Assembly: GCF_003334815.1 (NCBI RefSeq)
Contig: NZ_QOWO01000060.1
Origin: Escherichia coli
Lineage (GTDB): Bacteria; Pseudomonadota; Gammaproteobacteria; Enterobacterales; Enterobacteriaceae
Reading direction: 5' to 3' (one strand)
Length of the DNA: 10,787 bases
In this document: piece after piece, positions 5,578 to 7,544 of the stretch
Layout: each line of letters starts with the position of its first letter
Numbering within the stretch: position 1 is the first letter of the stretch
Program-made: the position numbers and the translations under genes
Notes under the pieces: generated by a model
Told to the model about the DNA's origin: nothing
The model's input: only the letters and a program-made list of their open reading frames with translations
The model's database searches: none

Positions 5578-5970
5578 ATGTACACAAAATCCTTTCTCGC
5601 TCTTGATGGCAACGGACGTCTGACGGGCGCCCGTACAGCACAGGCCGCACCTTATGCTCACTACACCTGCCACTTGTGTGGCAGTGCACTCAGATACCAT
5701 CCGCAATACGACACTGAACTTCCCTGGTTTGAACACACTGACGACAGGCTGACAGAGCACGGTCAACAGTGCCCTTATGTCAGGCCGGAGCGCAGAGAAA
5801 TACAGTTGATTAAACGTCTGCAGCAATTCGTACCGGATGCCTTACCCGTGGTGCGTAAAGCCAGCTGGCACTGCAGACAATGTCACCACGATTATTATGG
5901 GGAGCGGTACTGCACACACTGCCAGACCGGAGGTTTCAGTCTTCCCCGGACAGCTCAGCAACTGTCTTGA
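5578..5970 (+). CDS. Cys-rich small protein (putative zinc ribbon), paralog 1 of 2
   Basis: 130-aa ORF starting at ATG 5578 with AAGGA upstream. It has CxxC at the N-terminus (CHLCGS), PWFEH in the middle and CxxC-x8-11-CxxC at the C-terminus (CRQCHHDYYGERYCTHCQTG). Clearly paralogous to 7134..7544; family not recognised. Confidence 0.6.
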   Translation: MYTKSFLALDGNGRLTGARTAQAAPYAHYTCHLCGSALRYHPQYDTELPWFEHTDDRLTEHGQQCPYVRPERREIQLIKRLQQFVPDALPVVRKASWHCRQCHHDYYGERYCTHCQTGGFSLPRTAQQLS

Positions 5971-7120
5971 ACGTAAAAATTATGGAGCAACGTGATGGTA
6001 CGATTCATTCCATTCTTCGTTCTTTCTGAGCATTGCGTTCAGGATAGTCAGCAGCTTGCGTATACAGGTAACCAGCGCCACTTTTTTGGGTTTTCCTGCG
6101 GCAAGCAGTCGCATGTAAAACACCTTTATTACCGGGTTAAAGCGGGTTGCGACAAGCGCTGCCATGTACAGGGCTGTTCGCACACCAGCCCTGCCGCCAA
6201 AGATGGTTCGTCGCCCTCTCATCGTGCCCGAGTCCCGGTTTACTGGAACCATACCGACAAGCGCACTGATTTCACGCCTGGAGAGGTTACCCTGTTCGGG
6301 TACTTCCGCCAGCAGCGCAGCAGCCGTCATGGTGCCAACACCTTTAATACTGCTCAGTCGCTTAGCAAGCTCTTTGAAGTGGCTATGGATATGGCTGTTC
6401 ATGTCAGCATCTAGTCGCGCAAGCTCGTCTTCCAGTGCTTTGATGATGATATTAATGCTTTTCCTGTTCTATGGATGAGCAGGGTGCAACCGGTTTCTCT
6501 CGGCAACCAGCATCGTAATCAACTGCCGCCTACGAACTACCATTGCAGTGAGAACCTGACATTCAGTATCCGGCAGTGCTCTGATAAAGCGTTCCCGCTC
6601 CGGATGCCGGTTGAGAACCTCAGCCATCTGGGAAAGCACTCTGGCATCAATACTATCAGTTTTCGCGAGGTATCCCATGGCGCGGGCAAAGTCACGAGCT
6701 TGTCTGGGGTTAACCACGGCAAGCTCAAAACCTTCTGCCTGAAGCGCACAGACTATGGCGGTTTCAAGTCCTCCAGTGGCTTTCATTAAAACCAGCGCAA
6801 TGGCGTACATTCTCAACTCAGCAATGATGGCGTCAAAGCCATCACTGTCATTGCCGACAGAAAATTGTTCAATAGCGCTGCTGGCGGCAATATCCAGTAT
6901 CGCTTTCGAAACATCGATATCCACACAAAGTGAACCTGGCTGACTCATGATTACCCATCCTTGCAAATGCGTTATGGCGTACTGACAACTGTTCGGGTTT
7001 CAGATGAGTGGCTCAGTGTATGCGCCATTCGCTGAGCTACGGGCTATGAACCCCTTGAGGGATCGGGCTGCATACACCTTGCCAAATCTAATCACAGTTA
7101 TTTTAACCAATTGTCAAGAT
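5971..7120 (-). mobile_element. IS110-family insertion sequence (boundaries approximate)
   Basis: Carries an IS110-family transposase reading frame at 5980..6948, about 170 bp of non-coding sequence upstream of it and almost none downstream, consistent with IS110-subgroup architecture. This family has no terminal inverted repeats, so the ends cannot be fixed from sequence alone. Confidence 0.55.
5980..6948 (-). pseudogene. IS110-family transposase (DEDD-type), interrupted by a single in-frame TAG
   Basis: N-terminal part MSQPGSLCVDIDVSKAILDIA...NRLHPAHP and C-terminal part ...[49 protein letters not shown]... are typical IS110-family halves. They lie in the same frame (6966 minus 6402 is 564, which is 3 x 188), separated only by TAG at 6471..6469. 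ATG at 6948; TAA at 5982..5980. Confidence 0.8.
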
Positions 7121-7133
7121 ACAAGGAGGAGAT

Positions 7134-7544
7134 ATGCGAATTCTGAACTGCTATATGGCGAATGACAGCAAAGGCCATTTTGTTACGGCGAAAGAAGCCG
7201 CGAAGCACAACCGACAGGACGTTTTGTGCTGTGTGTCCTGTGGTTGTCCGTTAACACTTAAGCGGGGAAATGACGGACAACCGCCGTGGTTTGAACATGA
7301 CCAGATGACTGTTGCTGCGAAAATCCTGCTGCGATGCACCTGGCTTGACCCGGCAGAGAAAGAGGCCCGTCGTTTGCATCTGCAGGGCATGACGGTTCCG
7401 GATTATACGGTGAAGGTGAGAAAGTGGTTTTGTGTGATGTGTGACGAAGATTATGAGGGGGAAAAGTGCTGCCCGCGTTGTGGTACTGGGGTATACAGCA
7501 GGGAGGGGGGGCTGCAGGAAGGCAACTGGAAGGATAGGAACTGA
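7134..7544 (+). CDS. Cys-rich small protein (putative zinc ribbon), paralog 2 of 2
   Basis: 136-aa ORF starting at ATG 7134 with AGGAGG 4 nt upstream. Same architecture as paralog 1: CCVSCGCPL, PPWFEHD, WFCVMCDEDYEGEKCCPRCGTG. Confidence 0.6.
   Translation: MRILNCYMANDSKGHFVTAKEAAKHNRQDVLCCVSCGCPLTLKRGNDGQPPWFEHDQMTVAAKILLRCTWLDPAEKEARRLHLQGMTVPDYTVKVRKWFCVMCDEDYEGEKCCPRCGTGVYSREGGLQEGNWKDRN

Follow-up and report, generated by a model that had tools for sequence, protein, structure and literature searches.

Two small zinc-ribbon genes on a 10,787-nucleotide stretch of Escherichia coli DNA (contig NZ_QOWO01000060.1; the whole stretch is called the window here) belong, with high confidence, to the backbone module of integrative islands of the CP4-44/CP4-57/SRL type. 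ZRA and ZRB are our working names for the two zinc-ribbon (ZR) genes, which lie on the + strand at 5578-5970 (130 residues in this copy; RefSeq WP_047601023.1, "putative zinc ribbon protein") and at 7134-7544 (an intact open reading frame (ORF) of 136 residues; WP_001221604.1, "zinc-ribbon domain-containing protein"). The family itself is already recorded in Pfam, RefSeq and UniProt and is extremely common; the window is a decayed copy of this catalogued family, interrupted by insertion sequences (IS), and the result for the window itself is ordinary. What is added here to the catalogued family is its synteny, the coupling of the genes, the ligand set, estimates of selection, a leader and the anatomy of an insertion. 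An anonymous "zinc ribbon protein" thereby becomes a defined unit with two predicted zinc sites, a coupled gene pair, fixed neighbours and its own leader. This matters since the gene pair, in one to several copies, is carried without an assigned function by about 70% of the complete genomes of E. coli and by many other Enterobacterales.

The ZR family and its predicted metal sites

ZRA and ZRB are, with high confidence, true paralogs, as had been supposed in a preliminary description made from the letters of this DNA alone. They are 32% identical across 120 residues (BLASTP, E = 5e-16) and match the same two Pfam models. These are DUF7828 (PF25165), with E = 8.1e-31 for ZRA (model positions 1-87 of 87) and 2.1e-30 for ZRB (2-86 of 87), and, at the C-terminus, Zn_ribbon_11 (PF11682, once DUF3279), with E = 3.2e-9 and 5.7e-18, respectively. 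Both models were matched by 40 of 40 diverse family members. The architecture outlined in the preliminary description was also found: PWFEH, WHCRQCHHDYYGERYCTHCQTG and WFCVMCDEDYEGEKCCPRCGTG were read in the translations, and each protein has an N-terminal CxxC...WFEH...C site and a C-terminal CxxC...CxxC zinc ribbon.

In an alignment of 40 sequences from diverse members, C31, C34, H53, C99, C102, C112 and C115 are invariant, and C65, W50, F51 and E52 show conservation of 90% or more; all eight ligands occur in both ZRA and ZRB. At the level of sequence, this pattern implies two predicted zinc sites per protein. The N-terminal one would be a CCHC site made by Cys31, Cys34, His53 and Cys65, in which His53 is the H of WFEH, and the C-terminal one a CCCC site in a rubredoxin-like ribbon made by Cys99, Cys102, Cys112 and Cys115. 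The AlphaFold2 model of the ZRA monomer, with a mean predicted local distance difference test score (pLDDT) of 81, consists of small beta-hairpin-rich domains linked by a helix, and ends in a C-terminal tail that has pLDDT below 50 and is unconserved. ZR proteins are near neutral, with a median isoelectric point of 7.6 and net charges from -7 to +7. Long antisense ORFs at 5479-5826 (-) and 7151-7390 (-) overlap the ZR genes and recur across loci (ORF clusters F2, F6 and F8); they mirror the conservation of the sense genes and give no evidence of extra genes.

The preliminary description did not recognise the family, which is in fact catalogued, functionally uncharacterised and, with high confidence, centred on Enterobacterales. 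Its UniProt entries are named Ybl85 or DUF3279, and some bear the mistaken name "DNA-directed RNA polymerase beta subunit"; a literature search under all of its names returned no relevant paper on the family. When 1.84 billion representative proteins were searched in full with a HMMER profile, only 281 clusters came out at E<=1e-3. Full-length members are nearly all stand-alone proteins of about 130 residues, and many of the matches listed are shorter fragments. Foldseek recovered AlphaFold database models of the DUF7828 plus Zn_ribbon_11 family; among Protein Data Bank (PDB) structures it found no match at E<0.7, and a profile search of PDB sequences returned only chance zinc-ribbon matches (E>0.2). 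Scans of ZRA and ZRB against NCBIfam, PADLOC and PHROGs gave nothing meaningful: PHROGs matches had E>=0.02, and PADLOC returned none for ZRA and, for ZRB, only PDC-S64 at the chance level of E = 0.093.

The narrow family is nonetheless very common in one host. Of 5426 complete E. coli genomes, 3799 match the uninterrupted ZRA-ZRB DNA, 2984 of them with a single place that spans 80% or more of the query. The matching genomes hold copies at a median of two places and at a maximum of seven. In K-12 the ZR genes are not in the CP4-44 copy, which was the one K-12 island examined. Beyond the chromosomes, a tblastn search of 50,697 phage genomes found no ZR homolog. Of 72,556 plasmids searched in this way, only 33 gave a match, and most of these are large Klebsiella plasmids on which the complete island module is present.

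The ZR family is clearly under purifying selection, as judged from the coding sequences of orthologs. Between genera, using only pairs with unsaturated synonymous sites, the ratio of non-synonymous to synonymous substitution rates (dN/dS) was 0.22-0.29 for ZRA and 0.10-0.19 for ZRB. Selection had been named as a check in the preliminary description, and ortholog values of 0.1-0.3 speak in its favour at the level of the family.

That description had further suggested an anti-defence function, which found no support. As effectors of anti-defence or host takeover, the ZR proteins would inhibit a host nuclease, a restriction system or a nucleoid protein on entry of the island. Many known small zinc-binding proteins are inhibitors, and the same islands carry an antirestriction gene, RadC and an Hha-like gene. 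However, no PADLOC match fell below E = 0.09, homologs were found in none of the phages and are rare on conjugative plasmids, and the conservative evolution of this narrow family is not the diversification of an arms race. In addition, the ZR genes belong to the island end with integrase, AlpA and Rep, whereas the antirestriction/RadC block is on the opposite strand, several kb off. We therefore regard an anti-defence role as decidedly unlikely.

The island module, gene coupling and the leader

The surroundings of the ZR genes were compared in 15 Enterobacterales loci, obtained by a scan of one genome per species, through ORF clustering, hidden Markov model (HMM) searches and annotated examples. 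Where the module is intact, its order is a YagK/YfjJ protein with HUH and YxxK motifs, AlpA, ZRA, ZRB, a YagK-like protein that lacks the HUH motif, and DUF2913. To judge from these sequences, such a conserved six-gene module across many Enterobacterales genera is new. A YagK-like gene lies within ~2.5 kb of the ZR gene, and AlpA within ~2 kb upstream of it, in 12 of the 15 loci; the three exceptions are truncated ZR relics. The association with a YagK-like HUH/YxxK gene and AlpA also appears in every long metagenomic contig context read. It is a favourable outcome for the neighbourhood survey that the preliminary description had pointed to.

In the window, the HUH-like neighbour is the YagK/YfjJ gene at 4843-5412 (+), annotated as "inovirus Gp2 family" with a RefSeq start at 4843; the longest ORF begins at 4807. 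The product of this ORF (4807-5412) matches Pfam YagK_YfjJ_C (E = 1.2e-47) and, more weakly, REP_ORF2-G2P (E = 4.5e-5), and its translation contains HYHLMLLV, with the HYH of an HUH-type motif, and YLAK, which corresponds to YxxK. With an HUH motif, a YxxK motif and similarity to Rep/G2P proteins, it can be classed on its sequence as a putative HUH/Rep-like protein, in agreement with the preliminary description.

The association persists at considerable distance. Divergent metagenomic ZR members that align to ZRA with 24-43% identity keep the YagK/AlpA context, and distant islands retain the HUH protein and AlpA along with one, two or three ZR units. Some distant contigs have YagK_YfjJ_C, Phage_AlpA and a single ZR gene, and others have two ZR genes on either side of a YagK gene. 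The distant upstream YagK-like proteins have kept both the HxH-hydrophobic and the YxxK motifs. In one lineage (locus L031, 4612-5717, protein P0201), AlpA is followed by a 129-residue ZR protein and then by a 238-residue DUF7828-only unit fused to a full ZR. The two ZR genes have a stop/start overlap and there are three tandem units in all, an arrangement that hints that the units act together.

The preliminary description had placed ZRA and ZRB in tandem. They were indeed neighbours before the insertion described below, and they were more than adjacent, because they overlapped by 13 nt. In the uninterrupted allele ZRA has 133 residues and ends in ...TTQEEICEF, and the start codon of ZRB falls within ZRA, 13 nt from its 3' end, with a GGAGG ahead of it that is likewise internal to ZRA. 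Both the 13-nt overlap and the internal Shine-Dalgarno sequence are conserved in E. coli, Mixta, Hafnia, Tenebrionibacter, Siccibacter, Yokenella and a Klebsiella plasmid island. On this sequence conservation, we can say with high confidence that the ancestral ZRA and ZRB were a translationally coupled pair. A conserved overlap between two small genes, on a mobile island with toxin-antitoxin systems elsewhere, might recall a toxin-antitoxin-like or addiction pair. This reading was rejected as extremely improbable because the two proteins are paralogous, with the same fold and ligands, and occur in one to three copies; moreover, neither matches a toxin-antitoxin family.

The second YagK-like gene of the module, downstream of ZRB, lacks the HUH histidines and has a weak YagK_YfjJ_C match. 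It belongs to the Pfam family UCP030791 (HMM E = 1e-21 to the protein of locus L026), and in intact modules it is followed by DUF2913 (L009, 8906-9454; L030, 9900-10466 and 10543-11148). From its sequence it looks like a catalytically dead Rep paralog. The remainder of each island comprises a YeeP-like GTPase, a WYL/helix-turn-helix gene, DUF932 and antirestriction genes, together with variable cargo.

Another protein, of ~180-220 residues and with an N-terminus of the form ...YQxWLxDF...GxCxQ..., recurs by AlpA or directly upstream of ZR genes. It is found at L003 5881-6483 (-), in L005, L006, L012 and L014 (family F9), and at L027 4458-4991 and 6537-7067, and has no NCBIfam match. The L027 proteins were linked to F9 by eye only, through a resemblance of the N-terminal motif; the protein may be another member of the module.

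Distant islands carry varied cargo beside the module. It includes an Aravind-type SMEK_N/CTD10 - MC6 - DUF2326 conflict system, KwaA (Kiwa) together with a type I restriction enzyme, and an ars operon (L023 7400-10320; L031 7552-10717; L020 6424-10718). In this way such islands serve to carry genes for defence and resistance.

Directly upstream of ZRA, at 5497-5568 (+), lies a conserved non-coding leader of 72 nt. It is nearly invariant in E. coli, Salmonella diarizonae, Mixta, Hafnia, Tenebrionibacter, Siccibacter and Yokenella, although between these genera the neighbouring genes have diverged strongly at synonymous sites. It is non-coding, since the frame is broken by indels that lie between it and the ATG. 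With nhmmer we found exactly one copy per module, always 5' of a ZRA-type gene, and none upstream of distant single ZR genes. From these comparisons the near-invariant 72-nt leader appears to be a new element; an operator, a site of nicking and a translational leader are all conceivable roles for it. A structured RNA was considered and rejected, given that RNAalifold gave a nested structure with covariation of ~0, fold z-scores against shuffled sequences were -0.1 to -1.1, and Rfam gave no match to the leader. A repeated operator or origin was likewise dismissed, as there is only one copy per module.

The leader and the place of the ZR genes bear on a further explanation, in which the proteins would be transcription factors. 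Acting downstream of AlpA, they would be small zinc-finger regulators, like Ogr/Delta or zinc ribbons that bind RNA polymerase, of genes of the island or of a helper phage. The ZR genes always follow an AlpA-family regulator directly and have its orientation, small two-zinc near-neutral proteins would suit protein-protein contact with RNA polymerase, and the leader could be an autoregulatory site. On the other hand, the proteins do not match Ogr_Delta, TraR/DksA or any DNA-binding family in Pfam, no phage or satellite homologs were found, and the ZRA model shows neither a helix-turn-helix nor any other recognised DNA-reading element. Nor would such a role explain why the genes are so tightly linked to HUH-type proteins on both sides. 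While a regulatory or accessory role on nucleic acid is plausible for ZR proteins, we consider that they are unlikely to be transcription factors of this kind.

The IS110 insertion and the state of the window

As the preliminary description stated, the ZR pair of the window is split by an IS110-family element. It is 1165 bp long and occupies 5959-7123 (-), with boundaries set by alignment to EC1515 (locus L003), one of the genomes used to recover the empty site (H47-H53). In the coordinates of L003 the left flank runs to 12059 and the right flank begins at 12058. The dinucleotide AG (CT in the orientation of the IS) stands at both junctions, 5957-5958 and 7124-7125, in the alignment to the empty site. 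The transposase gene (5980-6966, -) is a pseudogene with an in-frame stop at 6469-6471, annotated by RefSeq as "internal stop"; both of its pieces match NCBIfam transpos_IS110 in one frame, with the stop between them. The element also has a 5' non-coding region of 175 nt (6949-7123, -), which is the length of a bridge RNA. With its transposase matches, a 5' region of this length and a 2-bp core repeated at both junctions, it belongs to the IS110 family, which is characterised by a DEDD-type transposase and a lack of terminal inverted repeats. Guide-target complementarity between the 5' region and the target was not above chance, with one 7-mer where ~0.7 would be expected by a rough estimate. 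A relative of the element, ~75% identical, occurs at other sites (hit H28).

The point of insertion is the 13-nt overlap of ZRA and ZRB, at a CT core. The last six residues of ZRA, EEICEF, are replaced by QLS, and bases 5959-5970, which encode QLS and the stop, are IS sequence. ZRB was thereby uncoupled from ZRA, yet its Shine-Dalgarno region, AGGAGGAGAT (7124-7133, +), which natively lies within the 3' end of ZRA, was left in place. No sigma-70-like promoter was found upstream of ZRB on its strand. So far as can be read from the sequence, this exact anatomy, with the IS in the 13-nt overlap, the ZRA tail swapped and ZRB uncoupled, is new. It qualifies the earlier statement that both genes look intact: the ORF of ZRB is whole, but ZRA has lost its native tail and ZRB its coupling.

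The same insertion is present in ~720 complete E. coli genomes, 675 records having at least 99% identity. An insertion shared so widely and with nearly all copies this similar fits one old, inherited event. The 3 kb from 4700 to 7700 of the window are 100% identical to NZ_CP047277 and further complete genomes. Compared with the uninterrupted E. coli allele, the window haplotype has 2 synonymous and 5 non-synonymous changes in ZRA, 10 and 4 in ZRB, and 11 and 6 in YagK, all small numbers.

These data raise the question of whether the window ORFs still function. They could be local relics, merely undisrupted so far, carried along by a recent clonal spread of the IS-bearing haplotype. The loss of the ZRA tail and of ZRB coupling, with no promoter-like site before ZRB, would agree with this, as would the number and near-identity of the genomes that share the insertion and the 2 to 5 count in ZRA. 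Three members of the module are also missing, as tblastn found no AlpA and no remnants of AlpA, of the HUH-less YagK-like gene or of DUF2913 in the window, although AlpA is part of intact modules and the window has its YagK-like gene. However, the counts in ZRB and YagK are still consistent with constraint, and the swapped ZRA tail corresponds to an unconserved C-terminus of low model confidence. We thus consider the relic explanation possible but somewhat doubtful. It concerns the window copy only and is compatible with the family-level explanation.

Downstream of ZRB, an ISL3-family transposase pseudogene (7828-9448, +; RefSeq annotation, NCBIfam transpos_ISL3) occupies the site where intact modules hold the HUH-less YagK-like gene and DUF2913. 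It is frameshifted and has an internal stop. With the stop in the IS110 transposase, both flanking IS elements are thus decayed, as had been noted before. On the 3' side of this pseudogene are a C-terminal gamma-glutamyltransferase fragment (9537-9820, +) and a truncated phosphotriesterase-related gene (9860-10711, -). EC1515 has an intact copy of the phosphotriesterase-related gene, after which come genes for a DMT transporter, an amidotransferase and a PfkB kinase.

The island is chromosomal in E. coli and lies close to cobUST and tRNA-Asn. On the far side of the YagK/YfjJ gene, the window holds a RadC-family gene (131-622, -), an antirestriction gene (626-1096, -; Pfam Antirestrict, E = 3e-37), an Ag43 fragment truncated at both ends (1644-3287, -; model positions 50-568 of 948) and an Hha-like gene (3951-4127, +). 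To the left of ~3300, the window is unlike NZ_CP047277, which there has an AlpA-like helix-turn-helix gene, a gene for an uncharacterised protein of 200 residues, IS2 and a GTPase gene; the island of the window therefore has a further deletion. No Rfam family matched anywhere in the window.

A possible accessory role and the comparison with known systems

Replication and spread of CP4-44/CP4-57/SRL-type islands are poorly understood, and the ZR genes sit in the AlpA/HUH part of these islands. We propose, tentatively and at somewhat less than even chances, that ZR proteins are zinc-stabilised, oligomerising accessory subunits of an island AlpA/HUH excision-replication module. They would be expressed from an AlpA-led operon and would form homo-oligomers in islands with one copy and hetero-oligomers where there are two or three. 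Together with the HUH-type Rep-like protein, they would act in excision, replication or mobilisation, by binding either a specific nucleic-acid site or the Rep-like protein itself. Metal binding, oligomerisation, the partner and the process are what we infer here from the two metal sites, the small size, the near-neutral charge, the coupled duplication, the fusion of units and the AlpA/HUH linkage.

Several observations weigh against the proposed accessory role. The near-neutral charge of ZR proteins is atypical for a DNA binder. The leader is single-copy and without a fold signal, and no binding site or origin was identified. Partner genes are missing from the window, where the local copy of ZRA may be drifting, on the small counts of 2 and 5. 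Finally, a fused ZRA-linker-ZRB chain gave an AlphaFold2 predicted template-modelling score (pTM) of 0.34, with the ZRA half less confident. As a crude test, with a fused chain and a partly chimeric alignment, this run neither supports a defined ZRA:ZRB heterodimer nor strongly refutes one.

A more ambitious version, which we find doubtful, is that ZR proteins, the HUH/YxxK YagK/YfjJ protein, AlpA and the leader constitute an unrecognised excision-replication or mobilisation module, in which the zinc proteins would be specificity or loading subunits of a Rep-like nickase. Such a module would be part of the commonest family of integrative islands in E. coli and its relatives. If true, the module would explain how "cryptic prophage-like" islands without transfer genes of their own replicate and move. 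The interest of the family, now modest, would rise if ZR proteins were shown to be the missing accessory factors of HUH-based replication or mobilisation in such widespread islands.

The preliminary description saw a loose resemblance to the N-terminus of CoiA. The spacing C-x2-C ... (aromatic)-F-x-H ... C is indeed alike in CoiA_N (PF25164) and ZR proteins, and there is weak, sub-threshold similarity: ZRB scores E = 0.02 and ZRA nothing, while among 40 members the best value is 1.3e-3, with 9 of 40 at E<=0.1 and 0 of 40 at E<=1e-3. Unlike CoiA, whose nuclease domain has been defined (PMC1189080), ZR proteins match neither a PD-(D/E)XK nuclease nor the CoiA C-terminal domain in Pfam and have a C-terminal C4 ribbon instead. 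Their context is also an integrative island and not a competence regulon. They are not members of the CoiA family, although from the motif spacing the N-terminal zinc knuckle may be remotely related.

A functional analogy is offered by Ogr/Delta of P2/P4. These small zinc-finger activators of late genes are encoded by an integrative element together with an AlpA/Vis-family protein, and P4 Delta consists of the Ogr unit duplicated in tandem. The duplicated unit of Delta echoes the duplication that gave ZRA and ZRB. In contrast, ZR proteins do not match Pfam Ogr_Delta up to E = 10, have no homolog in the 50,697 phage genomes, and differ in their cysteine spacing and in having two metal sites per protein.

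There is also a correspondence with known islands. The backbone of CP4-44, CP4-57 and the Shigella SRL pathogenicity island consists of YfjJ/YagK, AlpA/Vis, Hha-like, YeeP GTPase, Ag43, antirestriction and RadC genes. The window holds RadC, the antirestriction gene, the Ag43 fragment, the Hha-like gene and YagK/YfjJ in that arrangement, and the published ORF table of the Shigella SRL island lists the same gene set. Published descriptions of such islands refer to the ORFs beside YfjJ/AlpA only as "no similarity" or "hypothetical". A study of Pseudomonas islands of the same class (PNAS, 2025) considers AlpA, a Gp2-like protein and RadC to be likely core functions; the islands around the ZR genes match this class as well as the SRL backbone.

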